DNA of 64,000 nucleotides from Bilabrum cf. latius. Taxonomy: Eukaryota. The position numbers and the translations under genes were made by a program. Shown piece by piece: positions 1 to 64,000 of the stretch. Each line of letters opens with the position of its first letter. Positions within the stretch are counted from its first letter, which is position 1. The notes beneath the pieces are model-generated. The model worked only from the letters and a program-made list of their open reading frames with translations. It made no database searches and was not told the origin of the DNA. The stretch covers positions 682,001 through 746,000 of the forward strand of contig OZ237741.1 in NCBI GenBank assembly GCA_965178125.1, written 5' to 3'.

Positions 1-3000
1 GGTCAGCTGCGACAGTTCCCGCGTTGTGCGACGATATTGGCCTTTTCCGAGTTGCCTGGATGCTACCATGGGGTGGCTCCGGTTGTACTCTCCGGTGATC
101 GGATCGAGTACGGCATGATCCGATCCGTGGTCGCACCATCTCGCGACCGTCGGCAGCTCCATGAGATAAACCGCCCCAAAGGGCGCGCCGGCTTCCTCCT
201 GTTTGTACATTGGATTATCGTTGATGAACGCGGGGGCACCGGCGAGCAGCAGCGGGGTGGGCGACAGGGTTGCGTTCGTGAAGGGTGAGGCAGCCAGCGC
301 AACGCCCTATCCAAATCGACCGGGTTCCCGCAGGTGCTCCGGAGCCGATATGAACCTCACACTACCGGGCACCACCAGCGGATGGTCAGCAGCATCCTGC
401 GAGCTGGCATCGAGCCGATCCAGCACGGAGTCAGGCAGTTTCCCAGTCCCGGCATTGCCTGACATCCCCAGCGTGAAGAGAAGAATACCGCCTCGATCCT
501 GTCTGTCGGGCGCAGTGCCTACATGCCTGTCAGAAGACATGCCATCGTCGAACGGGACTTCATAAGCACCCACTCCAAGCGCCACCTCTAGGAGTCCGTC
601 GCCGTCCAGGTCCGCCGCAGAGACAGATGTGAACTCACCACCTCTCTGGTAGGGCAGGATCGAGTTGGGCCACATGCCACTGGCACGGCTCATTTGCTGG
701 CCCAGCAGTACAACCCTATCGATAAACTAGGTAGCGGTGAAGGACAGGATAGCGAGCATGCGTGATGATGTCACATCGCCTGACGCCACCCATGGTACTG
801 TTTGACCCCCAAAATTGGTGGAAGCAACCAACACGTCTGCCATCCCATCGCGATCGACGTCGCCAAGTGTTGCCAACGTGCTACCCAGCCCACTAAAACT
901 GGCTAGCTTCTAGCCTTCACTGCTTCGGCTAAATCCAGTCACTAATGAAGAAGAGCTGTGGTATCCTAACCTTGTTGTGATGGGCTGGCGGCTAGCAGAA
1001 ATCGTGAGCGAGAAGATGCCACCCTTTGACTTGTAGTCAGCTGCACCGGCCAAGAATCCCTCAGCGCAGCCATCCCCATCAAAGTCCACGTTGGCCACGG
1101 ATACTCCAAATCTTCCGCCATTCCAGACACCCTAATTCAGCTTCACTTCATTCGCTAAAGGAACACCTTGGTTAATGGAGTTTGACATCGTGAACAGTGC
1201 AAACGTGCTAAAGTCCGGGGTCCCTGCGATAGGGTATGTTGCACGGCCGTCGGCATGCTGCTAAATCGCACCTCGGGCCACAGCAAACCGGTAAAACCCG
1301 CCCCTCCTACCGTACTAGTCTGGCTGTCCGATCGTGAAGATCACCTTGTCTGCTGGCAGATTTGCAGCGCCACGTGCATTCGTAGAGCACCCCATTGTCA
1401 CCGAAACCGAAGACCCCCATGCTGCGCCGATGTCATCAGCGACACCGTAGCCATCATCTCCAGCTTCCGCTGGTAACCCTGCTGCTAGCATCCTCCTGGG
1501 CCTGTAGGCCGCGTATCCAAGCCCGCCCCCGTACCCGTAAACATCTTGCCTTAGACGCACGCCGGAATCTCTCTGCTCAAACCCTGCCGTGCCCTCCATG
1601 CGATTCCTCCAATCGAGGAAAAAGACATACACAACCCCGTCTTGCTCCTTAAACGTGCTTTGTACGTACCTTTTTTCCCTGGGTTGACCTACAATTGCAT
1701 CCATCTGCCCATCTCCGTCTACATCGAACCAGAAAGCTGATGAACCCAGCCCAAAGCCATCTGGGTCACTGGAGCTCGGCACGTCTTTAGCCTGCCCAAA
1801 CTCACCTGTGGATAGCCAGGCGTTGTCCTTCTCCCGTGGATCACCCGCCTGTCCAGCCCCTCTCCCAAAGGCTCCCAGCAGCCGCGCAGGGAACGCCTAC
1901 GACGGACCGACCCACGCGCAGCCCCTGCACTCGACTGACACCCAGTCGCCGCCGTCCCCGGGAGACGCGCTGCCGCTCGTCGTGGGATACGAGACGCGGG
2001 CGGAAAGCAGGCCGCTCGGGAGAGCAGGCGTCGACACGCTGAGCGGAACTTCAGAGGGGGTCGTCACTCCTGAGGAACAGTCCACCTCCGGGTCTGTTCC
2101 GCACTGGGAGGCGGCACGCACCGCGTCCTAAAGCCGCAACGCCTATGTGGCCGCGCGCCACCGCCTCCTCCCGAACCTGTCCTGGTCTATGTCCTCTCGC
2201 ACGTCGGCAATGCGTCCCGATCCAGACGTAAAGAGGGTTTCCGGCTTGCAGTCGGGACCCTCGCAGAGAGTGAAGGCCCACCCGGCTGCCTCCGCACTCA
2301 CCCAGGGCTGCACCACAGCGCCATGCAGCATGCTGGCATTGCTGCCCGCAGTGCCGCTGCCTGTCCCAGCAGCGGGGAAGCAAGCACCAGAGAGGGCGTA
2401 CGCATCGCTCGCGTCTTTCCTTTCCCCGTCTGTCCCCACGAGCAACTGACCCGAGTGCGCCGCAATCATGGCGGTGGGCACCACGCACAGCTCCACCACG
2501 GGGGGCACGCTCAGCCTGGGCCTGTCCCTGCGATCCGGGACCCGGAGCTGCAGAGCCAGCTGCTCGTGAGTGACCTGAATCCTCGCGCGAAGTGTCTGAG
2601 GAGACACGCAGCATGCTGGCGGCTCGCCGGGCCGGACGGAGTGCCACGAAGACACTGAGGCATCGGACTCCCATTGCCCGCCAAAGGCGACCCCGTCTCG
2701 TTGCGGCACAGGGTCGAACCAACCCGGTTCCCGCCGCAACACCCCCACCGGCACCAGGGACCCTATTGCCTGCCTGTGCACGCCAATGGGAGTATCCAGT
2801 GCCTCGGGCGAGCCATAAGTCGGTAGTGTTGCGTTGGCTCCCGCCATGGACGGCACCGTGGACCGCAGGAAGACTGCCCTCTGCAGGGCAGCCGTTGCGT
2901 TCGAGGCCGGGTCGAGCGAAGCGGCGGCCACGTACTGCGATGCTGCCCAGCCGAAGACCTGCATGCGATGCTCTAACGCTGTTCCCTGGCCGCCACCCTG

Positions 3001-4713
3001 CCCTGGGGTGGCTATGGACCCGTGCATTGTCTCGAGAACCGCGACTTCGATGGAGCCCCACTCCCCGCTGGATGGCGAGCACGGCCTGCCCACTGCGAGA
3101 CGGACGCCGGCTGCGTAGTTGGGCAGTGGCGGGAGCGGCTGCATGTAGTGGCCAAAAGAGGCTGAGCAGCCAGCTGGGACTGACCCGATCCCACCCACCC
3201 ACATGGCGTGCTTTACGAAGGCCCCACCAACGGGCCGCCCCCCTTTGTCGGTGCCTCGTACCCCCATCAGAAGCACAAAGAGTCCTGCCTGCGTCCTGGA
3301 CGCCGTGATGAGGTCGCGGATGCCGTCCCCGTCCACATCCCCAGAGACAACAGACACGCCCAGACCGGCACTCTCCGGAATAGCAGCCCCTCCAAGGGTG
3401 CCGGTCAGCGGATCTGGCTGCAGTACCGCCACCGCCTCGACCGAAGGTTCCTCAGCCTTCGCTACCCATAGAAGGAAAAGGGAACCGCGATTCCCGGCGC
3501 ACCCGGGACACCCCATCGCCATCACAGATGCCTCACGGAGCAGTTCCACCGGAATCCCGTCGATCGGGGCACCCCCAATCACGGTGCCGTCAGTTTCAAT
3601 GCCGCGCACGGGCGTTGAAACGCTGGCCCATCCGTCCGACAGCCAGGCCAACCCACCATCAAGGTCGGAAATCCCTACCCCAGGCTCGAGTCCCACCCTT
3701 AGAATGACCTTGGATCGCGCAGCTGCCTGCGCCGGCCTCCACACCCTGTGGAAGATCAGTTCCGCGGGCGCTCCGCCCCCCCTTGCCCCCATGTAACTGG
3801 CCACAATCACGTCCGGACTGCCGTCCAGCGACACATCGCCCGCACTGGCAGCAGCCAGGTGGATCCCCTCCAGCTCGCCGCTGCCCGGACCCCCTCTTGA
3901 AAGGCGGTGAATTCCCGTGGCAGGTCCTAGATTCGCTGTGCCAGCCCCCGTCCCCACGCCCGCTCTCGCCGTCAGCAGGCCCCTTCCCATCTCCAGCAGA
4001 ACCCCCTGGTGGCCCTCTCCCGTGAATAGAAGTAGATCATCTGTGGACCCGGGCGTTGCGCCGCCGCCTGCAGAACCTAAATCTCCCGGCGAGGCGAGGG
4101 TCACACGAGGTAGGCTGGCGATGCCAGACATGGTCCCCTAGTTCTCCAGATGGTTGAGAAACAAGTAGTCCTGGGGATTTCTGAGCATGTCTGCGATGGG
4201 ATGGTTGTGCTTCTACCACACGAATGTGTCTGCGTCCCTGGCGCCAGACTACGAGGGCTAGACGCAGTCTCCGATGTATCCTTCCGCCCGCATCCAGGGC
4301 CGGACGGCGCGGCTCGAGTGGAAGTACTGACGCTACTGGTCGCTACTACTAGGAAATTTTAAGGCTTCGTCTAGCGCAGATGGCCTGCTCACGCGGACCA
4401 TGGCAAGGCAAGCGCTGTTTGGGTTCGAAAGCCGCACCGGGTCCGCCACCGCAAGCACGAAGTCGTCAGGCCCGATCCCTCGGCTCCTTTCCTTCCCATA
4501 ACCGCCTACTCCTTCCCAAGGTGGTCTCATTACGACAAATGTGCCGGGCCAATTCGCAAATGCCTCCGAAGTATCACCTAGTAGCTCGCGTCCATCTAGA
4601 GCATACAACCGCGTATAGTTGATTGCGAGAGCTAGGCTCTTGTGGGGAGCTATACCCACAAATAGGAGCCCAAACATGATACTTATGCCCATCGTGGGGA
4701 AAATAGCACGCAT
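1..4713 (-). CDS. Large secreted/surface protein with FG-GAP (integrin-alpha-like) repeats; >1570 aa, 3' end outside window
   Basis: Track ORFs 4333..5154, 2143..4131, 1897..2121, 1315..1782, 910..1098 and 307..693 share one frame and are separated only by TAG (14: 4333, 4258, 4249, 4213, 4138, 2143, 2128, 1897, 1315, 1261, 1132, 910, 727, 307). Repeated Ca-binding FG-GAP motifs: GDVDGDGIRDLI, DVDGDGQMDAIVG, VDFDGDG, GDVDRDGMADVLVA, DLDGDGLLEVALG. Hydrophobic signal-like N-terminus MGISIMFGLLFVGIA; start at 4713 or 4692. Confidence 0.8.
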
Positions 4714-5137
4714 CTGACGAGCTTGATCGCCTTTTCGCGTTTCGGCGGAGAGAAAACAGACGTGCCGACGTTGACGAGCAGGCGTCCACGGCTTCTGCAT
4801 CGAATCAAAGCAAGAAAGCGCGAACACGTTGGTGCATTCAAGTACAACTCGTGGTGATAAATCGCTGAAGTGTGGCGTCAAATCGCCTGGCTCGCCAGAT
4901 ACTACCTTCCCCAACATGCATGCTGCATGCCCCGGAGCGCCTCGCAGCCTTCTCATCACACCACGTGGTGCACCTCGGATCGCAACCGCACCACGGATCG
5001 CAACTTCACCAGCAACGTGGGCCAGGGTCTGAGACCGCAACGCACAGAGGACCGGTTTCCGAGGAAGATCCCATCCGACCAGCCCGCGAACCAACCGATT
5101 TGGTTCGGGTACACCGTTCCTCGATCGCCCCCCTACT

Positions 5138-6222
5138 TCAGCTGGGTGGAACAAGCAATAACCAGAAAAAGGGGGGGTCTCCCACAGGTGGCACCACTTG
5201 GGTAGGTGCAGCCCCTGGAACTAATGGGCCGACACCGGTAAGGCCAGTATTAGCCGACTGACTGCCTTGCAGCCGCCGCGCGATTTGGGCAGCGCTGAGG
5301 CCGATGTTGCTGCTGCTGCTGCTGCTAAGCGGTAGGGGACCGGCCATGCCGTCCAGGAGTTCCGCCACATTCGCCGCATCCTGCTCTGAGATGACGCTGG
5401 CAGCAACGAGGTTTCGATACGCTCTCCACAGAGCATCACCTCCTGCCTCGATGATGTTGGATCGTTGGGAGGGTGTGTAGTAAGCGTCGACTCGCCGTCG
5501 AGACCGGAATCCCTTACGTCCCAGAGCTGCGGGCCGATCTGTGCAGCTTTGTCCTAGACCTCGCCCTTCTTAAGTAGCAGCCGTAGTGCCAGGTTGCGCA
5601 GTCCACGACGACGCAAGAATGCCACTCCTGCCACGATGTCGTTGGTGATGCCTTTCGCTGCGGTAATCGATGCAGCTTGCGCCTCGTCAGAGCTTTTCAT
5701 CAGCAGTGCCAAGGCCGAAGAGTCAGAGGCCAGGCTGCTTTCCGGTCCCCCCTTCCTCTTCCTCCCGGCAACCCGCTCTCGGCCTGCGGCCTTGCTTTCG
5801 GACTGCTGCCCAGATGACCCGGAGCCGGCCTTGGAGCCGGAGCTGGGGCTTCGGCTGGAAGAGGGACTGGATCCAGGACTCGCTGCAGACGCACTCTTAT
5901 CCTCTCTGTGCTTCTGCTGCTCTCCGGCATTCTGGACAAGCTTCGCTACTAGCTACATCTGTGGCACGAACGCCTCCGACCCGATGTCGGTCACGGCCTG
6001 GCTCAGCATGCTTCACCTCCCTTGCTGCATATGCGCGGTCATCGTTCTTGCGACCGAAGAGCCAACTTGACCGCTGGTCTGGATGTAGAGGGTGGAGATG
6101 GCGTCCTTGCTTCCAGCGGCCGCTAGCCTGATGCGTCGCGGTTCATCAGCTGTTGGTGCACGGCTACCAACTCCTCCATCACGGCTGCCGTCCTGGCGTT
6201 CCCCTCCGGTGGTTTTAGGCAT
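5138..6222 (-). pseudogene. Degenerate ORF remnant, possibly transposon-derived
   Basis: Protein-like reading MPKTTGG...QQGR[TGA 6013]SMLSQAV...LRRRGLRNLALRLLLKK, then an apparent frame change near 5500 into ...DALWRAYRNLVAASVISEQDAANVAELLDG. It stays broken by TGA and a frameshift even when TAG is read through. No recognisable domain. Confidence 0.3.
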
Positions 6223-7052: not shown

Positions 7053-7078
7053 CAGAAATACAGAAATACAGAAATACA
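7053..7078. repeat. (CAGAAATA)x3 short tandem repeat
   Basis: cagaaata cagaaata cagaaata ca, about 200 bp downstream of the minus-strand ORF ending at 7287; could be a retroelement 3' tail. Confidence 0.7.
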
Positions 7079-8507: not shown

Positions 8508-8622
8508 AATCTGACCGATGGTAGTGTGCTGTTTCTGATATTACAACGCAATTCAAATACAAATACACCAACACAAACCTCGCTGTACACACAGTAGGCC
8601 AAGAGCCAACGTAAATAGGTCC

Positions 8623-11600
8623 ATGGATACATTGGAAGAGCGCAAGGCTCGGAGGGGCGGTGCGGCAGCCGAAAGACCGGAGAAGCGAAGGCGAGTACAA
8701 AGTGGAGCAATTGCCAGCGAGCAAGACGAGTCAAAGTCACCGGCAGACGAATCAACTGAATTGGAGTTGACACCATAGGGCAAACGTGCTCCTGATCCCC
8801 GATCTGCTCTCTCTTCTGCCGGGTAGACCTCCGGGGGAGCTTCTAGTTCAAATCGGACTGGTCTGCCTCGCACAAGCAGCAAGGCATCCAAAGCATCGCT
8901 GCAAGAAGATGCCGAGGACGAAGATGAGGAGGATGATTACGATGACGATGACGAGGACGAGGATAGTGATGATGCGGACGGTTTTGGGGACGCCGCGGGG
9001 CCACAAGCAGACGTGGCTGGGAGCAACACCGAAGCATAGGCTACTCTGCTGCACAGAATGAAGTTTCCGGACCCTGGCACGATCAAGTCTATCACGTTGC
9101 AGAATTTTATGTGTCATTCGAACCTGCAGGTTGACTTCAAGCCGAACGTCAACTGTATCGTTGGCAAGAACGGAAGCGGGAAGAGCTCAATTTGCGCCGG
9201 GATTATGATGGCGTTCGATTCCCGCGTTGCAGCAACGGGGCGTGGAAGCAACATGGGATCTATTGTCAAGCATGGTTGCACAGAGGGGAGAGTTGTGCTG
9301 GTCATCCACAACGCAGCTCACCGAGGGGCGTACGCGACACGTGAGATGCAACACAAGGTGCTCAGTTCGCAACCCTGTCCCCTACGAAGCCCACGCCCCG
9401 TGCACGGTTGCATTTCAACACATTCATGTACTTGTAAGCTAGCCCTTGCCTTCGTCCCTCTGCTTCGTTCCGTTTGTCGCAGCGTAGCAGCCGTATCGCC
9501 CCGACTTTTTCGGTGACCGCATCGTCCTGACACGTCGGCTGCGGCGGTCGGCCACGGGCGGCACCTCGCAGTTCACAGTGTCCGGCTCCAAGCATGGGGC
9601 CATCGTCAAGGGCAAGGAGGCGAGAGAGGAGATAGCCCAGCTGCGGCAGCACTTCTAGGTAGACCCCGAGAACCCCATGATGGTGCTCACCCAGGAGGAG
9701 GCCAAGAAGTTCGCCACGGCCGACGGCAAGAAGAGGTACGACCTGTTCCTCAAGGCGACTTCGCTCGAGTCTGCCCAGGCCAATATGGTGGCCACTGCGG
9801 AGAAGATCGACCGCCTTTCCGAGGACAAGAAGAAGCTGCAGGGCGAGGTGGACAAGGCCAAGGCTGCCTACACCAAGGCGGAGAAGAAGTGGAACCGCTT
9901 CAAGGGCATGCAGGAGGTTGACGCGAACATCAAGGAGGCCAAGTTTGACGTGGCATTTGCGGAGCTGGACGAGAAGGAGGAGCAGATCGAGGGCATGCAC
10001 CAGGAGCTGACCGCCTTGAAGGAAAAGGCTGGCAAGGAGGAGCGCAGCATCGACAAGCGGATCGAGCGAGAGAAAGAACTGGTGGCGGAAATCGCCGAAC
10101 TCGAGGCGGAGATGGACCAGGTGGCAGCCAAGCAGGAGGAGCGGAGCAAAGAAATCGAGGACTTGCTGGTCGAGCGCGACTCCGTGAAGAAGCCGATGGA
10201 GGCGTGCAGCACGAGAGCGGAGCGATACAAGGCGAAGCAAGAGAAAGGCGAGGATCGGCTGCGCAAGACAAGGGCAGAGATCGCTCAGCTGAGGTCCAAG
10301 ATGGGCAGGACGGACTTCTAGGAGCAGCTGGAGGAGCTGCGCAAGCAGAGCGACAGGTAGAGGGCCAAGATGGACGAGCTCGAGGGGGAGATCAAGGAGG
10401 CGCACGAGGCAGTGCAGAAAGCGAAGCGATCGCAGTCCTAGCTGACAGCAGATGTGTCAAGTGCCAAGCAGCAGTGCCGCGAGAGCGAAGAGGGCATCGA
10501 CGGCGCCAAGCGCATGATGGCGGCTATGAAGCGTGCCAGCACCTCCAGCTTTGAGAAGCGTGTCGCTGCCCTTGACAACAGAGGGGAGGTGCTGGATGTA
10601 TACAAGCGGGTGGTTAACGCAGTCAAGGCAGAGAAGAAGCCCATGCCCGTGGGCCCCATCGGCGCATTTATCAAGCTCAAGGACCAGAGGATCACAGCAG
10701 CAGTCGTCTCTGTGCTGGATGACACGATCAACGAGTTCAGGTCCAACACAACGGCTCTCAACGCGACGCTACGGCGAGCTGCACCCCGAGTCAGCCTGGC
10801 CGTATCGCGACGCTTCCTAAACCCGGAGTAGGTCAAGAAGAGGTACGAGAGCACCCGCGTGAAGCCCAAGGGCCGAGACACCATCCGCACTCTGCACGAC
10901 TACTTGACCTTTGAAGGCGAGGACGAGCAGGAGGTGTGCGTGGCGGAGCAGACTGTGCTTGGCCGAAACACGCACAAGATCTTGGTGGCTATGGATCCAG
11001 AGCAGGGCAGGGACCTCATGGACCGGTATCCCGATGCGCTCGGGGCGGTGCTGCCGGATGGTTCCAGGATCCAGAAGCGAGGAAAGTCGGTGTCGTTCAT
11101 GGCACTCAGCAAGAATGTGCGCGCTCGCTTCGGCGGGTCTGCCAAGGAGGACGAGGGCAAGCTTGTCGAGTCGCTCGCCAAGCTGGAAGAAGAGTTGGCC
11201 GCGGCCCAGTCAGAGCTGCAGGTGGCCCAGGCACAGATGGACCGCCGCACGGAACACCTGCGGCGCAACGAGCGGAAGCTCAAGGATCTCAAAGCACAGT
11301 TTGCGGCGGCCAAGCGAGCCCTGGACAAGACCAAGAGAGCCGAGAAGGCGGTCCGGGAGCAGGAGAAGCAGGAAGGGGACGAGGAGCTGGGCCAGCGCGT
11401 GGAGATGCTGGAGGAGGAGGCGGAGCGAATCGAGTCAATCGTCGCCAAGTGCAAGGAGAGCGTGGAGGGGCAGGGAGAGAAGTACGCCAAGCTTAAGGAG
11501 GACCTCAAGCCCATCCTTGAGAAGATCAAGCACCTGAAAGCGATGCAGTCCGGAGATAAAGGCGTTCGCCGCATCACTGAATCGCTGGAGGGTAAGCAGG

Positions 11601-23942: not shown

Positions 23943-25757
<1,815 letters not shown>

Positions 25758-50600: not shown

Positions 50601-53600
50601 TAGGCGCAAAGTGGGACAAGCACAGCTCCGGAGTCGGTGTAGAAGAAGAGGAATTCGACATCAATGGGGATGATTACAACGACGTGGAATCGGATGGCGA
50701 GGGCAGTGAAACTGGTAGCGCAATGACAGGCGACTCATTAGAAGGCGAGGAGGTCGACGTGGGAGCTCGGCACGTCGAAGCTGTCATAGCGTATTCAGTC
50801 CCGGGTGTAGGTGGTCACCACTATGTTCGAGGCAACGTTGGAATGATGGAGGGCATGTGGGCGTGGACAGTCTCGATCGAGGAGGACAGCCGCGGCGATA
50901 TGCATACCCTCCTCGGTGTTTGCTTCGAAGACGTCAAGCAGGCCAAGTACGACCAGACGAGGGAGATGCTGCTTGTGGCCGGTTGGAGTGGGAGGGTGTA
51001 TAGACAGGGATCCAGGCTGCAGAGCGTCAGAATTAACTAGTTCCAGCCTGGTTAGGAGGTCACATTCCTACTTGACCTACGCGTGAGGGACGCAGACAGG
51101 GGCGGCACGCTATCTGTGTCCATCAACGGGGCCAAGCAAGGTGTAGTTTTCGATCAAATGCGCAAACTGGTGGAGCGCAATGGGCCTCTGTTCCCATGTG
51201 TAGGGTTCAGAGACTGTGACCAGGATCGAGAATACGTCGTACGACTTGCACGGATGGATCGCATCACTGATCCATTAGATGAAGCTTCGTTGTCAGCAGG
51301 TAAAGGGCAGTCGGATGGTGTTGCGACGAAGCTGGCAGCGTGGCAGGCCGGTGTCCCTCAGCTGTCTAACTCACAGCGGCAGGGGATGCTGGTAGGCTAC
51401 TTGGATTCGCTTGACTCTTTGGCCCCGGTGCAGCAAGCAATCAATGGCCTAACTGCAAAGCCAGAGGCCAAAGCCGATTTTAAACCGCCTGGCCTGCCCC
51501 CTTCCGCGGACTCCGGTAGCAGCTTCGAAGATTCCATTGCAAGGGGCACACCCGCGGCAGTGCGCGCATTCTTGAAGGGCTTGATGAGCGATGCATCCGC
51601 TGAACTGGAAGCACTGCGTGCCTCCTCAGCAGTCGGCCTCACTCTTGATGTCCTGTCCCGCTCCGCTCCTGGTGAAGCCCCTTCTTGCAATATGCTGCGT
51701 TCCATTTTGCTGGCGTTATTGGACGTCGATGCTCTCTCCTATGCGGTGATGCCGCGTCGAAGCCTGCTGCGCACCGGCTTTAAGCAGCGCATGGCCGCAG
51801 TGAGCTCAACCTGGGGCAGGGTGTATCAGCAGGCCTAGAAAGATGCAGAGCGGGTCATTGAGGGCTGGTCGCAGAGTGCTGGCCCTTCCTCTGGAGCGGG
51901 GGCTGATGTCTCTGAAGAGACCCGCAGTAAGGATGGAGGCAAGAAGTTTGACATTCAGAGGTTTGTAGCCATGGTGCAAACCGGCGAAACCAGACCTATG
52001 CGGGCCGTTTCAGAGAGAAGCTATTATCATGGATGGGACAAACGTTGCCGCGTCTCAGCTCTTCAGTGTATTGATAGCCCCACGCTCGCGCAGGCACCAG
52101 CTGTTTGGGTGGGTGCTTGCGTCTTTGCAGACGCGTTGCATCGCTTAGAGGCAGCGCCGCTAGATGTCGAGTACAGCGGAGGTGGGGTGTTGCGGCATCG
52201 AGGCGAAGTGCTGCAGATCGAGCAGTTTCGCGTTGATGCTATTTCAGACCAAGCTGTCTATTCAAAGCTGCTGCAGGACCTTCGAGGTGCAGCTGGGGCA
52301 GGCACTAGTGCTGGTGATCGTACCCGCGGTCAGTCGAAGTCCAACTCTCCCCAAGCCATGAGCAAGCTGATCAGCAAGCAGGGCGACAGCGGAGAGGCCC
52401 TTGTCGGATTCAAGGATGCGTACGACTCGGTCAGAAAGGACCACGTACTCCGGTACCCGTACATGAACCCGCTTTCATCGAAAGTGCAGATCTCGTCGGA
52501 TGGAAGGCGAGCCCTGTACAGCAACTCCAAGGCAGAGTGGGCCACTGCCACGGTGCGGCCAGGCTTTGCACGGCAGCATGACGGATGGCAGACGTGTTTC
52601 TTCCGAGTCGACAAGACGACCAAGCAGAGTATATTTATTGGAATTGCTCGCAGTTCCTCTGGCCAGAACCAATTTGTGGGGTCGTCTGCAAAAAGTGCTA
52701 GTATTTTCCTAAAAGGAGGCCAAATCTACGGCAAAGGCGGGCCTTAGGGCGGCGGGGAAGGCGGTCTGTCCGCTGGCTCTGTAGTGGCCATCAGATTCAA
52801 TTCCAAGACTGGCGTCGTCTAGTTTGGAGATGCTACGGCTGCTGCAGTGGCTGCTGCCAGAAGTGCCGCACGAAGCTGGGAGGCTGCCGAAACTGCCGCA
52901 ACTGTAGCGATTACTTTAGGTTCAGCTGCTCCAACGGCGCCAATTTCAGCCTCTTCCGAAGCAGAGTTACCGTATCCCTGCCCTTGGAGCCCTCGCCTGC
53001 TGGAGGTGCTGCCTCATATGCGGTTGTGTCCTGAAGCTAGCCACGGCGAACTGATGCCTGGCATCAATTGGTTTAGCACCACGATTTCTCTGCCAAACGA
53101 CGCAGAGTACTGCCCTGCGGTATCCATGAACAGCGACGGTGACGTGGTTCAGTTCGTGGGGTATGGTCCAGATGCTGCAGACGCGATCGCAAGTGGCACC
53201 AGCAACCCTTCTGGCGAAATTGACAATGCGATACCGAAGAAGAGGTGGTGGCCTGCCGTATCTGCAATGACAGCAGGTGGTATAATATCGGGAGGACTGA
53301 TCGGGAGCGACAGCTCTGGCGTGTACAGGGGACTTGTGTCATCTGTGCCTCAAGTCAGGAGCTCAGGTGGTGACGGAGCAGGCACCGTTGAAGCATCACT
53401 TAAGTAGATGGTTTCCGTGCAGCAAAACATTGGCGAGATGGTATCAGCCAGCTTCTAGACAAGCCGGCTTGCCCACGTATTTAGCACCAAAGAGGATGTG
53501 GAAACCTCGTACGGCAAAGGCGCCATTGGCAAATCTGACATGCCTCGTCTCGCCATACTGACCACGAGCATGGCTTTAGATGAGCTTGAACAGTATGTCA

Positions 53601-56600
53601 GGAAAGCAGATGTCTCCAAGACAGAAGAGCTCCGCAGTGGCTTCATGACGCACCCTCTGATGACCACTGTGGTTATCCCAGTGCTCGGAGCCTGTTTGCG
53701 GTGGAGGCAGGTGTCTGGAAGCTCAGCGAGCTTGCTCGGGCGAACATTGCTGCGTCTCATGCGCCTCTCCGCTGACATTGAAAGCAAAGTATCCCACCAT
53801 GAAGATCAAGCGGCGCTGCAGCAGCTGGTCGACGTCGCAGATTCTCGGCGCTTGGCAGCCAAGGCTGCCCTGCTTGAGCAACCCCACGAACAGCTGCTCT
53901 AGCCTATCAAGGTTGGCACCAAGCTCCTGAATGAAGACGGGAAAAGCGTGCCTCGGTCATCGTAGATCCCATGGAAGGTTTATGCAAAGCTGCACGGGTG
54001 CTCTGCTTTGGGAGAGCTGCCTTGCGACTTTTCACTGCGGTAGTAGACAGACAGGGTCTTGCCCGCGAAGTCAGGCAACCTGTTGCGAATGGTGCGTCTG
54101 CTGGCATCCAGTGCAATTGGTCGCTTCGCAACGATTCTAGCGCAATACGGACAGCGGGAGCACGTCGAGCACTGCCTTTACGACAGATTCGAAGACTCTG
54201 CGTGGCTGCTGCTGGAGCCAGAAGCCGTTCGGGTTTCCTCCACGTCTCAGTCCAAGGCCGAGGCTGAGGACGGCCGATCGGAGGCCAAGAAGGCTAAGCT
54301 GGCAATCCGAAAGGAGCAAGAAAAGCTCGCATTCGCAGGCTTGGATTCGGAGCATGGTAGCCGCCCAGTTGACGAGGCAGACAGCTGGGCCAAGTCTGAG
54401 CTCTTCCGTGGCGGCGTGCGCAAAACTACCGGACATCACGTGGCGAGCTCTGGCGCCCATCACTTGCAGGCTGACGAGGCGAAGCGAGCCCTCTTTGACG
54501 AGGGGCGCTTGGTCGCCACGATACTTGCATCTACGGAGAAGAGCCAGGTTCGCGATGTGACAAGGCTATGGCTTGAGCGACACCTCATGGATGCCTTTAC
54601 TCGGCGCAAGATGGGTTCAACCATCAAGGCTTGTAGAAATGCAATCCACAGCGTTTTCGCTGCGGTTTTATATCACCTTGGCTGCTCGCATGAGCTAAAG
54701 CCGCTTCTGACTGCTGCTGAGGATGCCCTGAAAGCTGCAGATTCTACGGACGCTGCTGTCTCCCAGCTTGATTCTTTGCTATCCCCAAGCGAAACTCTGC
54801 AGAATGTGTGGGATTCATCTGTCGCACTGACGCTTGAATGGATTAAGGCAGCTTCCAATCGAGTCAAGTCTGCCGAGGAGCAGCTTGTGGTTGCGTCTCA
54901 GAACCGTAGAGACGCGGTGCGGGCATCCGTCGGAGCAGCCAGCTCTAGTTTGGAGTCCGAGAGCAAGACGGAGGAAGCTGCCGAAGGCAAAGAGACGGAG
55001 GATGAGGGAGGTCCAGCAGGATCGGCGAAAGGTGGGTCTGTTAGCGAATCGGCCCTTCCGCCCGTGTACGAGCCCAGGGGCTTCAACCGGTCGCTTGTAA
55101 GCAAGCGTATCGCTCAGCGGGCCTCCTTCTTGCTGCAGGCAGTGCTACCTGCATCACCCGAGGCACAACGCTGTGACCTAGTAGTATCAAAGGGACTTGC
55201 AAGCGACCAGGTAGCAGCCAGCAGTACGGCCACAGTCGAGACTCTGCGTGTTAGCATGGCACGAGCTGTGATCGCATTCACGGTCACTCCGCTTTCGCTC
55301 CCTCACCTGATAGATGCCCTGTATTGCGCTGCAATTGATGCCGAGCATCGCATCGATGGCATGAGCCTTGCTGCTGCTGTGCTGAATGGACTTGTAGCGA
55401 CACAGCTGCCAGATCTTGCTATGCCACGGGACACCAACAATGTGGCGCACGTGTTGCGGTGGATTCCCCAAGCGTTCAGATCTGTGCAGGACGCATTCCA
55501 AGTAAAGTTCTCATACTCCCAAGGCTCCAGTGCAGATTCCAAGGCTCGGGCATTGACTGGTGACCTGCAGAACTGTGGGTACAGCATCGAGAAGGGCCTG
55601 CGATCGGCCTTCTATGAATTGTAGCACGCTGTGGCGAAGGCGACGGAGTTCGTGGCTTCGTCTGCTAGCGCTCGAGCGAATGCGCGCTTGCTCGCCCTGC
55701 AGGACCGAGCGCCTCTGTCGTCTGCTCTTGTTATCCGCAAGGAAGCCTCTGGGCCTGCGTTCGATGCCCTCGTCGACTACGCCCGGCAGTCCACCTTCCA
55801 CGTCGATGAGATTTCCACACAGAGCCAGCTGAGTGCCTGCATTAACGCTGCTGCTTTTTCGCTGGAAACGCCCGAAGACTTCCTGCATGCAGAACGGTCA
55901 GGTGCTGTGGAAAGCATCGAGACAACCCTCAAGGCGCTCCGAGCGCAGGCCGCTAGCAGCAGTTATGCTCAGAAACTCATCGCTGCCGTTTGCAGCCCTG
56001 CCCTAGAGGAAAAGGCAGACGTAGCAACTGGAGATGATCGACGCAGTGCCGAAGTGCAATTTGCATAGAAGAGAATGCAGCAAGGGCTTGTCAATTTCTT
56101 CGTCTAGGTTCGGGAGATGGCAATTGAGGGCGTCATTCGATCTGCGGCTGACGTCGAACGCGGCGTGCTGCTATTCACGCAGCTGCAGGCGCTGCAAGGC
56201 TCAGCACTTGGCGGTAGGCTTGTGCAGGAGCGTAACCTTCATGAACAGGCCGTCCGAGATGCTGCAGGTTCCTTCCGCATCGCTGCAGCGACTCTGGGTG
56301 TCGTCAATCATCTTAGTATCGAACCCAGTACCTAGCAGGACACAGATGGCCTGGATGCCGCCCGCAGGCTCACTGCTGCTGCATTGGACATCGTGCGAAC
56401 CGAGCTGCAGCAGTTCCTTGCCGAGGAACGCCTCGCGCAACGGCGCGCCCGTTTAGAGTAGCGGCCTTGGCTGCTTTCTGCTGCTCTCAGTTCGATCAAA
56501 GAGGCCCTCGAGAAGATCAAGAAGAAAACCGCGAGCGGCGGTAGCGTTTCAGCTGCAGCTAAACTGGTTGAGACTGCGGCTGCCGCTGCTGATGTCGCAC

Positions 56601-59600
56601 AATCAACTGGGACTAGCGATATCATGTCCGAGGCCTTCGCCCTCGTCAAGGCAGCAGAGGCCACATACAGCTCCATGACGTCTGCAGCCGGCACAGCCGG
56701 CGAGGCAACGGAGGCGCTGTCCTTCTTGGAGCTCAGGAGGTCCAGCTCGGTGCACGCTGAGGCGGCTGCTGAGGGCGACGCTGCCAGTGCCAAAGCCAGA
56801 GCGAAGGCGAGGCTGGTGCTGGCCATCGAAGCCGATAGTTAGACAGCGGAGCTCGCTTCGAAGCTCTCCAAGGACCTCGATCTTAGTGCTCTGCGGCGCA
56901 AGGTGGAGAGCGAGGATAAGGTCGTGGAAGAAGCATCGTCGCTTCTGTTCCAGCTGGCCGCCAACAGGAGCAACGCGATGCAGCTGGCCACTCCTGACTG
57001 GCTCACGCTCCTGTTTGATCTCCTGCGCCGTGGCTCCTTGAGCGTGCAGCGGAAGACTGCGCGAGTACTGCGCAGGGTGCTTCCGTGCTGCGATCCCATG
57101 GACATCAGGGTGCAGCTAGAACCGCTTGATGACCAGTTTGGAGATCTTGGGAGCGCAGTTGCAGGCACTAGCGACAAATCCGAAGAGTCTGCGGGCCCAG
57201 CTGAGATTGTGCAGCTCCTGCTCGACCTAGTGCAGCTGTCAGTCGCACCGCTGACTAAGGTACGCGGTACTATGAGTGGCGAAGAGATCCCCACCCCACA
57301 GCGGGCACAACTGGGCAGCGAAGCGTCTGCAATCCTACGCTCTCTGATCGCGAGCAGGAGCTGGTCACCCCTTGTGGTTGAGTCGCTGCGTGACGGGATC
57401 CAGACTTGCAATGGAGAGGCCAGCAAAGTGGCTGAGGGCGCAATTGATGCCTTAATGACAGAGGGATTCCTTTCCGTACAAGGCCGTGCTCTTGCTTGCT
57501 TCACAGTAGTCACTGGTTGCGTAGAGAGGCTGCGCGCAGGCTCTTTAGTTCGCATGGGAGCGTGGCCGAACTTCATGAGCTCGGGTCATGGGCGCGTCAT
57601 CTCGTACCAGGAAAGCCGGGACACGGTCAGCCTTGCCAACTTCCAAGTCGACGGCGATTCCGAAGAGCGGGCCCGTGAGCGGCTCCGCAACCCCACGCAG
57701 AACGATGTGCCGGTCATGAGGCTGGTCCCCCTTCCGCAGCAGGGGCTCGCGAGAGATGCCATTCCGCTCGACCTGTGGCAAGCAGTTTTCGATGCTGCCG
57801 CCACGTTTGGCTTGCCCGACTTGGAGGCCGTCAAGGGGCTGGACCCTTCGCAATGGGAGTCCGGCGATGATTCGGACGAGGACTTGGAGAAGCTCATCCG
57901 GTCCATGAGCCTGCTCAGTCCCTCGCCCATTCCTCCACCTGGACAGCAGGTCATTAGCGGTGCGGTATCTGACTTTGATTCCAATTACGCATTTGATGCG
58001 GCTTTGAGCTCTAGCGGTGTTGAGATCACCGACGAGGGCAAGAGGGCAAGCTGCAGCAGTACCTATGCGTTCCTGATCAACGCGCCTCTGACGCCGGGAT
58101 GCGGCGTGTGGGAGTGGGTGCTAAAGCTCGATAATGACAACGAGAACGATGAGATCAGCACTCTGGGGATGATCACATCTCCACCCCCAGGCTCGTACGA
58201 TTCAAGTGGTGGCGGAACATACGTGATTCGGTCATTCAATGGGTGCTTCTACCAGGATGGAAGCAGCACATCGTCGCGCAATGAGTGCAAAATGCATCCA
58301 GGTTATTTCGCCAGGTTTGTCTACGATGGTGGAGACAGCTCATTGAGGTTCTGGCGTCGACCCGAGGAGCAGGGCTCAGACTGGCAGCCCCACAGCAACC
58401 CAAGCCCCGCCGATTTGGAGAAGGAGGGCTGGGAGGGCGGTGAGAGCGGTATTCTGCTATGCAAGGGAGTGCCCGACGGGCGCACATACTACCCTGGCGG
58501 CATGTCTTACTCGAGTGGTGTAGATGTGTCGATCCAACGCGTGCGGCGACTCGACTTCAATCCCCACATCGAGGCGTGCAAGCCAGGGGCTGCCAAGGTT
58601 TCGAGCGGGGAAGATAACGAGGCAACCAAGGACCGTTTCCCAAAGGCTCGCGCCGCTCTGAAGGAGCACCAGATTGCGATGGAGAAGGTCCCAGCGAGCG
58701 TGCGAGCTCTTCATGCTGAGTTGGCATCTTCGGCGGCGAGCGCGCTGGCCGACTCGCTGCAATCTGCAGCCGTGTGCCAAGCATTGCTTGATCCTGAAGG
58801 CGACAGCGGCTTGCGATCAGGGATTGCACGAGCAGCTGCACAGCTTGTGCCCAATTGTGGCGGACTGATCGACGAAGACCTTGCCACGAAGCGGCTGCAG
58901 CTGCTGGTAGACGCCTCGATCGAGCACGACCGCAAGCAGCAATTGGCTTCCCGAGCACGCGACCAGGCCATGGAGTTCTTGGCTGCCAAAGGCTTAAAAC
59001 TCTCCGACGAAGAGCAGGGTGGCAAGTCGAGCAAATCAGCTGCCTCTGCAGACACAAAGCCAAAGGAGACAGCAGCTGCAAGCGAGGCCATCATGAGCAG
59101 CACCCCGCAGAGTGACGCGGCCGCTGCAGCGATGGCGGCAGCACTGATGCCTTGGCGGAGCACCGGCGACTTCAGTCCTTCGTATCCTGACCCGGAAGAT
59201 GGCGAGCCCCTTCGCGCTGCCAGTCGGGCTGTTCCCAGGCAAGCGTCGAGCGGTCGGAAGTAGCGTAGCGGAAGGCTAGGCAGGGCGCAGAGACAGGATC
59301 CAGCCGATGCCGCGTTGGGCTCCGCCGCAGACGCCATGGGACTTCGGAGAGTTGGGGGCGGTTTACGGACGGGTAGAGAGGCCTCGGCAGACGACCGACT
59401 GGACTGGGGCTCACCGGGTGGTGCCGCGTCTGCTCGCCTGGATGGCGACAACGTGTTGCCTATGCCGGGGATCCCACCAACTCCGCAACCCTTCAGAATG
59501 GGTTCGCACGAGCGTTCTGCTGCACCTGCAGCTGCACCGGCAGCTCCTTCGCCTATCGTGGAGATGCTCATGGGAATGATGCCGGATGCCTCGCCCGGTT

Positions 59601-62600
59601 TCATCCAACGCTCGCTGGCCGAGACGGGTGGAAACCCGGATGCTGCGGCAATGTGGCTGATGGAGCACGCGCACGAGATGGCTCAGGCGGCCGAGGAGGA
59701 AGCCCGCGCCAAGGCGGAGGCAGAGGCAGCCGCGAAGGCCGCGGCACTAGCAGAGAAAGAGCAGGAGGAAGCCGCCAAGCGTGCTGCAGAAGAAAACCGT
59801 CGCCTTCTTGAAGAGGATGCTGCCGAGGAGGATGGTGACGATGCTGTTCAGGATGACGAGGACGGCAGCGGCGACAGCGCCGTTGCTGCACTTCTGCAGG
59901 TAGCTAGAGATACCGCTGGCGATGGCCCGGCCTTCCTACCCATCGTGGTTGCGGGCAGTGTCCGCCAAAACGAGATCGTCGTCGTGGAAGACTGCCTGGA
60001 GGAGGACTCTGGGTCGTCGTCGCAACCAGGCGATAGGTACTTCCCGTCGACTGACCCGGCTTGGAGCGGGAGGAGCTCTCGGTCCGAGCGCAGACGGGCG
60101 CGCCGGGGAGGCAGGAGCGGGTACGCCTAGGCGCGAGACGGCAACCTGTTCGACTCTGCGAACGACAGCACTTCGGATGCTGACACTGCCATCACAATTG
60201 AAGACCGTAGGCGGCTTCACCTAGCGGCCGCCCGCCGTGTGTTTGGCCAAGACAAGTGGTCTAGAGCCGTTCAGCATGTGTACTCCATGTCGTCCTCAAG
60301 ACTGCGCGGCGAGATCTCCAAGCAGGTTGCGGTGCTTGCCTGCCTCCGGGCCCGCAGGGCTTTCGTCACTTTGTGCGCAGCCGTGGCGCAGTAGCCTGTC
60401 GAGCACATCGGCAACGGAATCCGCCAGCTCGCAAACGCTATCGACTTGCCTGCGGTGGCGGTCACACCGCTCCTGCCGCGACTGCCGCGAGGCGGCGAGA
60501 CCGTTTCTGTACACGAGCTGCTGGGAATTTCTCCGAAGAAGAGCGAGTCCACATGTGGAGACCTCGCATTGACCAGCACCGACGTGTTCCTAGCCGCACT
60601 CCGGCACTGCGCGTGGAAGCCATACCAGCCGAGCTGGCTTGTGCCTGAGGAGGTGGCCACTGAATCTGCAGAGGCCGAGCCAGAGAGTGACCAGCACGAG
60701 ACCGGGGAACTACCACCTCCTGTGGCGCGGCGCCAGTCTTCGACGACGTCCTTCAGCGGAGTGCTGTCGATGCTGTCAAGCTCTCGGTCCGGCCTTTCGG
60801 GGAGCTCTGGTACGGGGGAGATCACCACGCTGCCCGGAGCCATGCGGATGATCCTCTAGAAGCTGCTACAGGCTGAGGCTGACGAAGCGCGGTCGAAAGC
60901 AGCAGGAAAGTCCCCGGTGCGTGCCGCATGCCTACGCGCCGCCCGGACCGCCCTTGCGCTAGCTTCCCATCGGTCAAGCGCGGCCGTGCTGGTGAGGTAG
61001 CAGCAGTCCGTCGAGACCTCCAGAATGTCGGGAGGGGACCACGCTATCACCCGATCCAGCGTGATCGGGGCAGTGCCGGAGGCTCAGGCAATCGACCACC
61101 CCGACGTCGACTTGGTGGAGCTGCTCACAGAAGTGGTTCTGGAAGCAGAAGGTGACGCGCTGTCACTGGGCTTGACCAGCCTGGACACCAAGGAGAAATC
61201 ACTGTCGCTAGATGAGTTTAAGCACGCGGAGCGGTCTGCGAGGGGCGTGTACACCGTGTGGGCGCTCGGCTTGCGGTCGCCCACGGCTACGCTGAAGGAG
61301 GTGTCCCTGCGTGCCTTGGGTGACGTTCTTGAACGGGTCAGAATGCTTTCCCTCCGATGTGTCGACGTGGATGGGGCTGTCGTCCCGTGGGAGCATTACC
61401 TTGCGCTGGTGCCTGCGAAGAGGATTGAATCGATGGTTGCCAGGCGGCTGGATCGCGAGCTTGAGGACTCGCCACGGTACAGCAGATACTTGCACGTGTT
61501 GGTGGAGTTTTCGTCGTTGCTTCGCTTCGTTCGCGAGAAGATCGCCGAGTCGCATAGGTCTGGCGGCTCGACAGAAGACGCGGTCGCAAAGCAGGCGCTG
61601 GTGGAATCTGACAACGCTGAGTTTGGCATTCGGTTCACCGGGCTTGACTCTGAAACGCGAGAGGAGATGCAGAAGGCTCATGCATCCAGCGCAGGAGCAA
61701 CTGAGGAATCCAAGGAACCAGAGTCTGGTGCTGGAGGTGCTGACAAGGATGACCAGGCGGATGTTCCTGTGATGCCTCATGAGGTGCAGCTGGTCAGGCT
61801 CGGAGGCAAGTCTGCTGTTCAGTGCCCTTGGACGATTGAAGTGTGGGTGCGATGCAGGGCCAAGCGTGGGCCGCTCGCGCGTCAGAAGGAGAAGTCAAGG
61901 TCAGTGAGCGCGGCAGCCGCAGGACCTGCCAGCGGTGCTGCAAGCCCGCCATCAGCGGAGCTTTCCTTGCTTGAGGACCCTTCCAGTGACGTTAGGGTGC
62001 CCAAGTGGCACCGCAATGCCATCGAGCAGGTTCATGGGTGGGGCGAGATGCTCGATAGCGAGAAGCAGCAGGAGCTGGAGCTGCATGAGTACGGCCTGGT
62101 GGCCGGTGTGCAACCCCGGCCTCTCGTGGAATCGAGCAGCCACGGTGCGTCCTCCCGTGGATTTGGCAAGTTTGCCGTTCGCCCAACGTCTGGAGCCGAC
62201 AAGTTCGAGCCTGCGCCATTCCGTCCAGCCGCTCGATAGAGCCAGATGCTGCAAGCAGCTGGGCTAGTGGGCGAAGACGGTGCTCTGCAGGCGAAAGATC
62301 AGCCCAGGTACCTTCTTGCCACTCCAAAGGGGGGAGGCATCCTGCTCGAGTGTGGTCTGGCAGCCGGTAGCGTCCTGCACCGACGGGCGGTTGGCCTGGT
62401 GGGCGAGGATGGCAAGAGCGTGGTACCTATCGACTACGAGTGCCCGGCCTACGACTGGGTGCACTTGGCGGTTGTCGCTGACGCAGATGCAAACGTCAGC
62501 ATCTACGCGAATGGGCAATTAGCCACGACGAAGAAGGTGCACTATCCTGCGGGATCGGCGCCGCTGCCTCACTGGACTCTTGGGTCCGAGCGCGGCGCGC

Positions 62601-64000
62601 CCTTGCGGGCGGACGTGTACGACCTCAGGATGTGGAGGTGTGCCAGGACTGCGGGCGAGATCCGGCGTGACATGATGAGCAAGGTGAACCTGATTTCGGT
62701 GCAGCCCATGCTGATCGGGTACTGGAAGCTGGAGGAGGGCTTCGGCAGGTATGCAGCAGACGCATCTGGCCAGCACCACGCGTGCTTCGTCAATGGCCCG
62801 CAGTGGATCAAGGTGAAGAAATCGATCGGACCCGGGCCCGCGCAATCGGCCGAATCGAGCGGCGAGTCTACGCCTGTCGTTGCAGCCGCCTCGGGTGCTG
62901 GGGCAACTCGAGAGCTGTAGACTGCCTTCGATGCCCTTCCTAGCGTGCCTGTGCTTTCTTGCGTTACTCATAAGTCCACCTTGCAGCTAGGTGACGTTGT
63001 GTCATCCTCGACTTGCGAGCCCGGGGCCGACTGGCGCGAGTTCTCGGGCTACCTGAGGGCCAAGGCGCAATCGGGCGAGGTTGGTGACACGTGGAAGAAG
63101 CCCTTGTCACAGGCTGTAAGTGTGCATTTCAGGCCGTGCGAGCCCGAGAAGGTGACTGAGGCCCTCGATGTGCTTGGCGAGACGGCCGCTCTGGTCGCCC
63201 GGAAGTAGGGCAAGCCTGCTGCCGAACAGGATTCTGCACGGGAACAGCAGGCTAAGCACCACCCAGGAACGGTGCTTCTGGTAGGATACTTGGACTTGCC
63301 AGAGTCGCTGGCCAGGGCAGAGCTAGTGGGTAGGGCGTATCTGAAGAAGGATCTCCCGGACTCGCTTCCGCAAGCTTGTGCCGATCAGTTCGAAGGAATT
63401 CAAGGCGATCCTAGGAGCGACCCAGCAGCAGCAGCCGCCATTGCAAGCTACTGGATGGAGTCCGACGTTGTTGGTGACGCGCTGCACACGACATCACCGA
63501 CTGGCGGGGCCGCATCATCATCGGGGCCCCAGCTGTACCTCGTTGCGTCCGGAGTGACCGCAGGCCCGCCCGATGTGCTGTCGTGGCTGTCCGGCCTTGA
63601 GTTCGAGGGGGAACATCGTAAGGTCAAGCAAGGCGAACCAGATATGGACATGAACAGCACAGAGGTGGACGGTAACGTGTTACGAGGACATTGGAAGGCT
63701 CATCTGGTAGAGCGAATCAAGGTCAGTGGCGAAGGCGATGCCGAGGTTGTCGACCCGAACAGCCAGCTGCGGTTCATCAAGGCCATGTCGCACCCCCGGT
63801 CTACCATCTCAGTGGATGGTCTGACTGCATCGCTGCACAAAGGCAACCCTGCCGATGAGTGGCGCATGGCAACACTGACTTGCTCCGCTGAACCAGACAT
63901 CTCGAAGCTGCAGGACGGAAAGGCACCCGCGAAGGTGGACTTTACTTAGGGCCGCGTGCTGGTCGATGTCACTTTCGCCAGTGGCAATCGTGGCGGTGCC
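44669..64000 (+). CDS. Giant multidomain protein (>6400 aa, runs off window) with SPRY, LamG-like and UBA-like domains; probably a HERC/HECT-type E3 ubiquitin ligase
   Basis: 26 track ORFs (44669 to 63272) are all in one frame and are interrupted only by TAG (about 43 by hand count); an in-frame TAA at 44660 precedes the ATG. SPRY: KWYFEVQ...QVGWAT...GVGDNYTSWGY...VDLDAGTISF...FFPAVS (about 46.0-46.6 kb). HERC1-type SPRYs at about 50.8-51.2 and 58.0-58.5 kb; another at about 52.5-53.2 kb. LamG-like: QWVHLAVQFD (48.1 kb), WVHLAVV...LRMW...LIGYWKLEEG (62.4-62.8 kb). UBA-like: RSLAETGGNPDAAAMWLMEH (59.6 kb). HECT domain not seen in window. Confidence 0.8.

Follow-up and report, generated by a model that had tools for sequence, protein, structure and literature searches.

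Reading of UAG as sense, probably as glutamine, in 64 kb of nuclear DNA from a protist apparently related to Cafeteria

Is UAG still a stop codon in the organism whose DNA is analyzed here and, if it is read as sense, which amino acid does it specify? The question is raised by a 64-kb stretch of contig OZ237741.1 (positions 682,001 to 746,000, forward strand; hereafter the window, meaning the whole stretch at its full length, in whose numbering all coordinates are given), for which a preliminary description made from the sequence had proposed that UAG is a sense codon while UAA and UGA are retained as stops. We conclude with good confidence that UAG is read as sense, glutamine (Gln) being the likeliest amino acid, and that translation is terminated mainly by UGA and otherwise by UAA, in a protist apparently related to Cafeteria.

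The G+C content of the window ranges from 54% to 65%, and its open reading frames (ORFs) of at least 300 amino acids (aa) were compared with each stop triplet in turn read as sense. Under the standard code, 23 such ORFs sum to 10,784 aa, the longest measuring 806 aa; with TAG as sense there are 37, summing to 27,657 aa, and the longest reach 6446, 2004, 1666, 1519, 1145, and 988 aa. Reading TAA as sense changed almost nothing (the longest ORF was still 806 aa), and reading TGA as sense produced many ORFs of medium length, none above 1194 aa, in which frames were merely joined because TGA is the commonest stop triplet. Giant ORFs were thus opened, in this three-way comparison, by TAG only. The long frames are eukaryotic genes with Pfam and PDB matches, arranged on alternating strands.

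The 12 gene models, 17,249 codons in all, contain 117 in-frame TAG triplets, close to the approximately 118 counted previously, and, as had also been stated, neither an internal TAA or TGA nor a frameshift. A coiled-coil gene at 13136–16041, counted apart, holds four further in-frame TAG outside the 117. At the triplet frequencies of the window (per position, both strands: TAG 0.0075, TAA 0.0034, TGA 0.0129), approximately 281 in-frame TAA or TGA would be expected in unconstrained sequence, whereas none was observed; the in-frame rate of TAG (0.0068 per codon) is practically that of the background (0.0075). These TAGs lie in conserved, intact genes with matches in Pfam or PDB. Among 11 complete genes, nine end on TGA, two (SMC6 and hemerythrin) on TAA, and none on TAG, in line with the earlier claim that no gene needs TAG as a stop. 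Conventional Gln codons in the 12 models number 160 (CAA) and 554 (CAG), so that TAG, if included, would account for approximately 14% of Gln codons (117/831).

Some details of the preliminary description had to be adjusted. Thirteen of the 14 genes it counted were recovered, the fourteenth having as its counterpart only a candidate ORF at 7287–8540 (minus strand), for which neither a homologue nor RNA support was found; both TAA ends stood, while TGA ends came to nine, one fewer than the 10 stated; and the statement that every gene carries TAG holds with spliced gene models, the long galactokinase exon having none and the sole TAG of that gene lying in exon 1. Its central proposal, sense UAG alongside UAA and UGA as stops, is borne out by ORF statistics, by homology, by messenger RNA (mRNA) contigs, and by a relative with the same usage, and that UAG is a sense codon in the window's organism is practically certain.

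The relative came to light through SMC6, whose matches include short fragments of high identity (56% over 252 aa and 78%–80% over 85 aa) on contigs long enough for the whole gene, which is the expected product of standard-code gene calling on a TAG-bearing gene. A metagenome scan queried with an alignment of the close SMC6 fragments yielded two loci, L001 and L002. L001 is a contig of 6193 nt (54% G+C) on which SMC6 exon 1 and an intron at the window's position are followed by exon 2, which spans 1065 codons, includes 14 in-frame TAG, and ends on TAA; downstream of SMC6, the coiled-coil gene of the window has its orthologue, in which the exon end and the GT donor are the same. SMC6 exon 2 of the window and of L001 are identical in 471 of 1069 alignment columns (global identity, approximately 44%), and two TAG positions are common to both sequences, namely the first full codon of SMC6 exon 2 and window position 13302 in the coiled-coil gene. 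Because L001 uses UAG in the same manner and shares these two positions, the UAG code characterizes a clade and predates the divergence of L001 and the window's organism. L002 is a more distant SMC6 (46% identity in its best segment) with no in-frame TAG.

The amino acid read at UAG

For the amino-acid call, homologue sets with TAG masked as X were collected for RNMT (35 homologues, 29 aligned), SMC6 exon 2 (the best 150 of 1740, 75 aligned), and CFAP57 (68 homologues, of which 10 true orthologues were aligned), and PDB alignments contributed a few further TAG sites. The 43 TAG sites of the giant ORF at 44669–64000 were left unused here because no homologue of near its length was found among 5.8 billion proteins (region 1–5000 searched). 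Gln is found opposite TAG at RNMT site 162 (Q in 12 of 29), SMC6 sites 279 (Q 11, R 10, E 7) and 319 (E 17, Q 12), and CFAP57 site 1176 (T 5, Q 2, A 1, E 1). At CFAP57 site 1066, six of nine sequences have Q, including the five closest, Cafeteria among them, with identical flanks, and the other three have K.

A decoder of the Codetta type, which sums for each codon the amino-acid log-odds against Henikoff-weighted alignment columns, was correct for 60 of 61 sense codons (at least five sites each). Its TAG sample comprised 26 sites, 12 of them in L001. The profile per site at TAG (E 0.64, Q 0.60, K 0.44, R 0.30) matches that of CAG in the same alignments (Q 0.73, E 0.62, K 0.42, R 0.33) and is unlike that of GAG (E 1.13, D 0.74, Q 0.58). 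In a stratified bootstrap, in which the same number of sites per alignment was drawn from the codons of each known amino acid, Gln fitted best, with a root-mean-square Z (rmsZ) of 0.70 and a correlation of 0.991, followed by R (rmsZ 1.31), K (1.50), E (1.57), Ser (1.84), and L (6.99).

The alternative that UAG is sense for another polar residue, glutamate (Glu), lysine (Lys), or arginine (Arg), has to be weighed at this point, and we consider it improbable. It draws on the uncalibrated decoder score, which over the 26 sites is marginally higher for Glu than for Gln (16.7 versus 15.6 log2 units) and lower for K (11.4), R (7.9), Ser (4.7), and Leu (−15.1), and on single columns: CFAP57 site 1178 has E in eight of nine sequences and D in the ninth, and at site 1066 the three K residues are joined by D or E in the PDB chains of CFAP57. 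UAG as Glu is moreover known from one ciliate, in which UAA encodes Lys, as described in PMC10553269. Glu and Gln can, however, be told apart only via calibration on true Glu and Gln codons, and there the difference between the E and Q scores decides for Gln, being 0.04 at TAG, −0.04 ± 0.11 at true Gln codons, and 0.46 ± 0.10 at true Glu codons (0 of 2000 draws reached the TAG value); the rmsZ values of E, K, and R likewise exceed that of Q. Site 1178 is one of several un-Gln-like columns, the others being RNMT sites 93 (L, I, or V in 26 of 29 homologues) and 113 (N in 27 of 29, Q in two), SMC6 sites 58 (N in 40 of 70 residues, Q in two) and 292 (L 23, K 10, A 9), and PPCS site 240 (aligned to V or L).

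The comparison with L001 also speaks against Glu, Lys, or Arg. Opposite the remaining TAGs of the window, L001 has CAG four times as well as A, D, and A; opposite the TAGs of L001, the window has CAG twice, K and E three times each, and S, R, H, M, T, and A once each. All Gln partner codons are therefore CAG, one transition away from TAG. With pairwise substitution probabilities taken from the window–L001 alignment itself (1031 pairs, P(Q|Q) = 0.29) and a flat prior, the posterior for Gln was 0.999; the calculation drew on 19 partner residues (five Q, four E, two K, two A, and six residues seen once each), a set in which one C-terminal site is aligned differently from the listing just given. 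The codon tally named in the preliminary description, carried out on the window alignments plus L001 with the calibrated decoder, hence returned Gln, and on these comparisons UAG very probably encodes it. Recoding of the pyrrolysine or selenocysteine type was ruled out by the background frequency of TAG in all genes together with the Gln-like alignment profile.

Transcripts, termination, and a possible mechanism

Contigs (not raw reads) of four public runs were compared with the window over 8400–24100. One contig of a DNA run is collinear with the window and identical to it over 8457–24100, and is possibly the source assembly, hence not independent. Contigs from three other runs, belonging to two further studies, skip four GT..AG introns (9341–9482, 12933–13135, 13399–13516, and 21763–21869), and these runs have zero cover of the spacer at 18880–20975, which the DNA run covers evenly. 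Because the introns are skipped and the spacer is uncovered, we infer that the three runs derive from transcripts. Their contigs show no other letter and no indel over SMC6, RNMT, the galactokinase gene, and the coiled-coil gene; the whole SMC6 mRNA is present in a single contig (8583–9340 joined to 9483–12661), and further contigs represent RNMT (16313–18378), the galactokinase gene (21432–21762 joined to 21870–23851), and the coiled-coil gene. They end 15, 43, and 67–86 nt past the frame-closing TAA or TGA, the SMC6 contig 15 nt past its TAA. At the level of contigs, at which rare variants and true poly(A) sites are not visible, the TAGs within 8400–24100 are present in mature mRNA, neither spliced out nor edited. 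The RNA check for editing or splicing that the preliminary description had named thus found the TAGs unchanged in spliced contigs of four genes.

These data also bear on termination. UAG might be ambiguous, serving as sense within genes and as a context-dependent terminator in some of them, as in Condylostoma or karyorelict ciliates; we give this little credence. Only 11 terminators were seen, so UAG might occasionally terminate elsewhere in the genome, and the 3′ untranslated regions (UTRs) look very short, with contigs ending 15–86 nt past the stops; short 3′ UTRs accompany position-dependent termination in ambiguous codes, according to PMC4967479 and 10.1101/2022.04.12.488043. Yet none of the 11 complete genes ends on TAG, and SMC6 has an in-frame TAG 10 codons before its real stop, after which the residues are conserved in L001 (D-V-E-L in the window, D-I-D-L in L001).

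That the organism instead uses the ordinary code in which both UAA and UAG (UAR) encode Gln, with UAA merely rare in a GC-rich genome, is very improbable. TAA is indeed the rarest stop triplet in the window (0.0034 per position), and most known reassignments couple UAA with UAG, as outlined in PMC5304391. However, a CAA:CAG ratio of 160:554 would predict approximately 34 in-frame TAA in the 17,249 codons, of which there are none; the TAA of SMC6 follows directly upon the conserved C terminus in both the window and L001, the transcript contig of the window ending 15 nt beyond it; and the hemerythrin gene also ends on TAA. Since no TAA is in frame and the SMC6 TAA follows a conserved C terminus, the code is not the common UAR one. 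Finally, the notion that the TAGs are not translated as written, being C-to-T errors of sequencing or assembly, edited sites, tiny introns, or marks of decaying pseudogenes, has a negligible probability, as the DNA-run contig and the transcript contigs of two other studies are letter-identical and free of indels, the only joints are the four GT..AG introns, none of which removes the TAGs, 17,249 codons contain no TAA, TGA, or frameshift, and the separate organism L001 has the same pattern with two shared TAG positions.

How would UAG come to be read as Gln while UAA is not? Cytoplasmic translation would read UAG as Gln at full efficiency; efficient decoding is indicated because a frame of 6444 codons with 43 UAG would be impossible by leaky readthrough. 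The decoder would be a tRNA-Gln with the predicted anticodon CUA, one base change away from tRNA-Gln(CUG), pairing with UAG and not with UAA, and it would be charged by a glutaminyl-tRNA synthetase (GlnRS) tolerating the anticodon CUA. In release factor eRF1, the N-domain would no longer recognize UAG, its reading of a third-position G being weakened, and would still read UAA and UGA. These parts correspond to what a table with UAG as sense and UAA as stop requires, as set out by Panek et al. 2017 (PMC5304391), namely a decoder with anticodon CUA, a tolerant GlnRS, and an eRF1 weakened for third-position G.

Several points weigh against the reading of UAG as Gln in a Cafeteria-related organism, in addition to the un-Gln-like columns, the raw Glu score, and the small number of terminators given above. 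The sample is one 64-kb window with 26 alignable TAG sites and 11 stop codons. No tRNA gene was found in the window, L001, or L002; eRF1 is likewise not encoded in the window. The labels of runs X5–X7 as RNA were guessed, X5 being flagged as 'probably DNA', and their nature as transcripts comes from the pattern of splicing and coverage. The taxon, discussed below, derives from best named matches at 25%–48% identity, most matches being nameless.

Gene content and affiliation of the organism

The genes confirmed in the window are listed in Table 1 together with their in-frame TAG triplets and terminators. No rRNA and no Rfam family was found in the window.

Table 1. Genes of the 64-kb window, with in-frame TAG counts and terminators.
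Product	Coordinates	Strand	Exons	Evidence	In-frame TAG	End
FG-GAP repeat protein	1..6009	−		Pfam FG-GAP, E 5.6e-19	17	ORF runs off window start
SMC6	8623..12646	+	8623–9340; 9483–12646 (GT..AG intron 9341–9482)	Pfam SMC_N/AAA_23	10	TAA
Coiled-coil protein	13136..16041	+	13136–13398; 13517–16041; upstream exon ending 12932	Spliced contigs, 3 runs	4 (2 in exon 2)	TGA
WW + mRNA cap guanine-N7 methyltransferase (RNMT)	16356..18362	−		Pfam E 1.2e-53; PDB RNMT matches; 35 homologues	5 (3 in alignable columns)	TGA
RanBP1-domain + galactokinase fusion	21433..23765	+	21433–21762; 21870–23765 (intron 21763–21869)	Pfam; spliced contigs	1 in 742 codons	TGA
Phosphopantothenate-cysteine ligase (PPCS)	23943..25916	−		Pfam DFP; PDB 7edz/1p9o/6ai8	9 (counted from first ATG)	TGA
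Low-complexity protein, 1652 codons, RG repeats	26107..31062	+		ORF	12	TGA
CFAP57 (WDR65), axonemal	31180..35631	−		PDB 8glv, E 3e-157, mammalian CFAP57; homologues incl. Cafeteria	6	TGA
Protein with two p27/SSSCA1-type zinc-ribbon motifs	36015..38069	+		Pfam Auto_anti-p27, E 8.2e-22	2	TGA
Hemerythrin-domain protein	38895..39587	+		Pfam Hemerythrin, E 3.1e-11	5 in 231 codons	TAA
Kinesin	39671..42586	−		Pfam Kinesin, E 1.1e-36	5 (all in tail)	TGA
Acidic, tail-anchored-looking protein	42828..44069	−		ORF	2	TGA
Giant ORF, more than 6444 codons, several SPRY and concanavalin-like domains	44669..64000	+		Pfam SPRY, E 3.9e-29; Laminin_G_3	43	No TAA/TGA; runs off window end

Some of these products have features of their own. 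The N-terminal third of the FG-GAP protein may not be entirely coding, judged by G+C content at the codon positions. RNMT carries an N-terminal WW domain, a fusion that Pfam also shows for Cafeteria and for the majority of the 35 environmental homologues. One spliced mRNA joins a RanBP1 domain, encoded by exon 1, to a complete galactokinase encoded by exon 2, an unusual domain fusion, in a gene whose G+C content at third codon positions (0.85) is the highest of the window; in the ESM Atlas the galactokinase part matched plant and green-algal galactokinase clusters only, which is uninformative for taxonomy. PPCS has a C-terminal extension of approximately 300 residues, in which charged residues abound and approximately 40 serines stand in a row (repeat at 24129–24254), and the giant ORF also contains a UBA-like stretch. 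Neither the coiled-coil protein, including the small N-terminal domain on the exon with 'DYDDPYEVI.FI', nor the 1652-codon RG-rich protein, nor the acidic protein at 42828–44069 matched a Pfam family; two stretches of the 1652-codon protein with an AP2-like look had no Pfam match even at E values up to 1. The ORF at 7287–8540, which may be the fourteenth gene of the preliminary description, has 417 codons, coding-like G+C by codon position, two TAG, and a TGA end, and gave no Pfam match; an ORF of similar composition on the plus strand (7686–8759) overlaps it.

Between the divergent RNMT and galactokinase genes lies the spacer of approximately 2 kb at 18880–20975, in a part of lower G+C content (0.54 for 16001–20000). 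Around SMC6 exon 1, the summed contig depth of the DNA run was 324–404 over 8400–9447 versus approximately 48 elsewhere, with many loose ends at approximately 8940–8964; either the acidic GAN-repeat stretch in this exon or the adjoining upstream sequence has further copies, whether elsewhere in the genome or in other organisms of the run. Between L001 (744–6191) and the window (8623–13398), the order SMC6 to coiled-coil gene, the position of the SMC6 intron, and the donor after the 'DYDDPYEVI.FI' exon are conserved. Three further SMC6 fragments (P0053, P0056, and P0064; 178–318 aa, 31%–42% identity, on contigs of 1.4–9.4 kb) may stem from additional relatives cut at TAG by standard-code gene calling.

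Which organism does the window come from? Cafeteria roenbergensis (also filed as C. burkhardae) was the best named match for three of three proteins checked. For RNMT, the match lay in the cluster of P0014 (44% identity), with the same WW–RNMT fusion; for CFAP57, Cafeteria P0198 ranked second of 68 (48% identity); and for SMC6, Cafeteria P0046 (25% identity) was the best full-length match among 1.84 billion representatives. Cafeteria is GC-rich and intron-poor, like the window. These matches suggest a bicosoecid-related stramenopile at large distance, a lead rather than a phylogeny, and the window is best explained as nuclear DNA from a flagellated protist that is rich in G+C, poor in introns, and closest, among named organisms, to Cafeteria. 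In Cafeteria itself, RNMT and SMC6 bear the locus tags FNF29_01604 and FNF29_01662, and RNMT and CFAP57 the tags FNF31_02623 and FNF31_02648 (on the same contig of 372,890 nt); such nearby tags, some tens of genes apart, hint at a linkage conserved with the window.

Comparison with known codes

A code in which UAG is Gln and UAA and UGA are stops is formally NCBI table 15, and the code itself is already known from Iotanema, Protocruzia tuzeti, and some phyllopharyngean ciliates. Most UAR reassignments have been found in AT-rich genomes, the opposite of the GC-rich setting seen here. What the window apparently adds is one more origin of the UAG=Gln code, independent of the others and unusual for its setting, a GC-rich genome with UGA as the main terminator. 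Independence from the known UAG-only lineages (the rhizarian, Iotanema, ciliates, and Scotinosphaera), which the preliminary description had put forward, finds support in the stramenopile Cafeteria being the nearest named relative for three of three proteins checked. No nuclear UAG reassignment in a stramenopile or bicosoecid was found in the literature searched, whose coverage was incomplete and left most subscription journals and supplements outside, and a description of the present case may exist or be in preparation, the genome data being from 2025. Whether nuclear stop-codon reassignment is here encountered for the first time in Stramenopiles, as an old and clade-wide UAG=Gln code in free-living flagellates related to bicosoecids, GC-rich and UGA-terminating, we judge to be evenly balanced. 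If it is, a possibly culturable system, for which several DNA and RNA runs exist, would be available for the study of how eRF1 drops UAG yet keeps UAA.

UAG-only reassignments are few, comprising a rhizarian, Iotanema, Scotinosphaera, and some ciliates, and UAA and UAG almost always change together, according to the surveys in PMC11687900 and PMC5304391. Codes of this kind are natural experiments in which eRF1 and tRNAs are seen to be capable of distinguishing UAG from UAA. An independent origin in a GC-rich, UGA-terminating, stramenopile-like flagellate would widen the phylogenetic and compositional range of UAG-only change, and would bear on codon-capture versus ambiguous-intermediate models. 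There is also a practical side, in that gene callers using the standard code will split nearly every gene of this organism and of its environmental relatives; in public protein sets, relatives of SMC6 can already be seen in pieces of 85–318 aa.

Set beside individual systems, the window differs first from Cafeteria (C. roenbergensis/C. burkhardae), with which it shares the WW–RNMT fusion at protein identities of 25%–48%. Cafeteria presumably uses the standard code, because its proteins are deposited at full length without a break at these positions. The UAR=Gln codes (NCBI table 6), reported in PMC11687900 from many ciliates, hexamitin diplomonads, Dasycladales and other ulvophytes, Streblomastix, and Amoeboaphelidium, also assign the codon to Gln, presumably reached there too by mutation of a tRNA-Gln, but in the window UAA stays a stop, with none in frame and with two of 11 genes, as well as SMC6 of L001, ending on it. 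Rhizaria sp. exLh, likewise a UAG-only protist of the SAR supergroup outside the ciliates, reads UAG as Leu with UAA and UGA as stops (PMC5304391), a reading rejected for the window (rmsZ 6.99; log-odds −15.1). The green alga Scotinosphaera, also UAG-only, retains UAA as a stop and reads UAG as Ser (PMC11687900), which fits the window poorly (rmsZ 1.84; log-odds 4.7 versus 15.6 for Gln).

Closer in kind are the ciliate Protocruzia tuzeti and metagenome-assembled genomes of phyllopharyngeans, which are UAG-only (Gln or Leu), UAG=Gln having arisen repeatedly, as described in PMC11687900; those are macronuclear genomes, whereas the window is without their features and has its best named matches in Cafeteria. 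The same table as that proposed here is used by Iotanema spirale (Metamonada, Fornicata), in which, in the genes examined for PMC5304391, UAG encodes Gln and is never a terminator, and UAA and UGA are stops. The predicted mechanism is also the same, a tRNA-Gln(CUA) combined with an eRF1 weakened for UAG, which in Iotanema carries a T32G change in the GTS motif (PMC5304391). Iotanema is, however, an anaerobic metamonad of another supergroup, in contrast to the stramenopile-like flagellate of the window, and it stops mainly on UAA (104 of 119 genes; PMC5304391), whereas the GC-rich window stops mainly on UGA (nine of 11).

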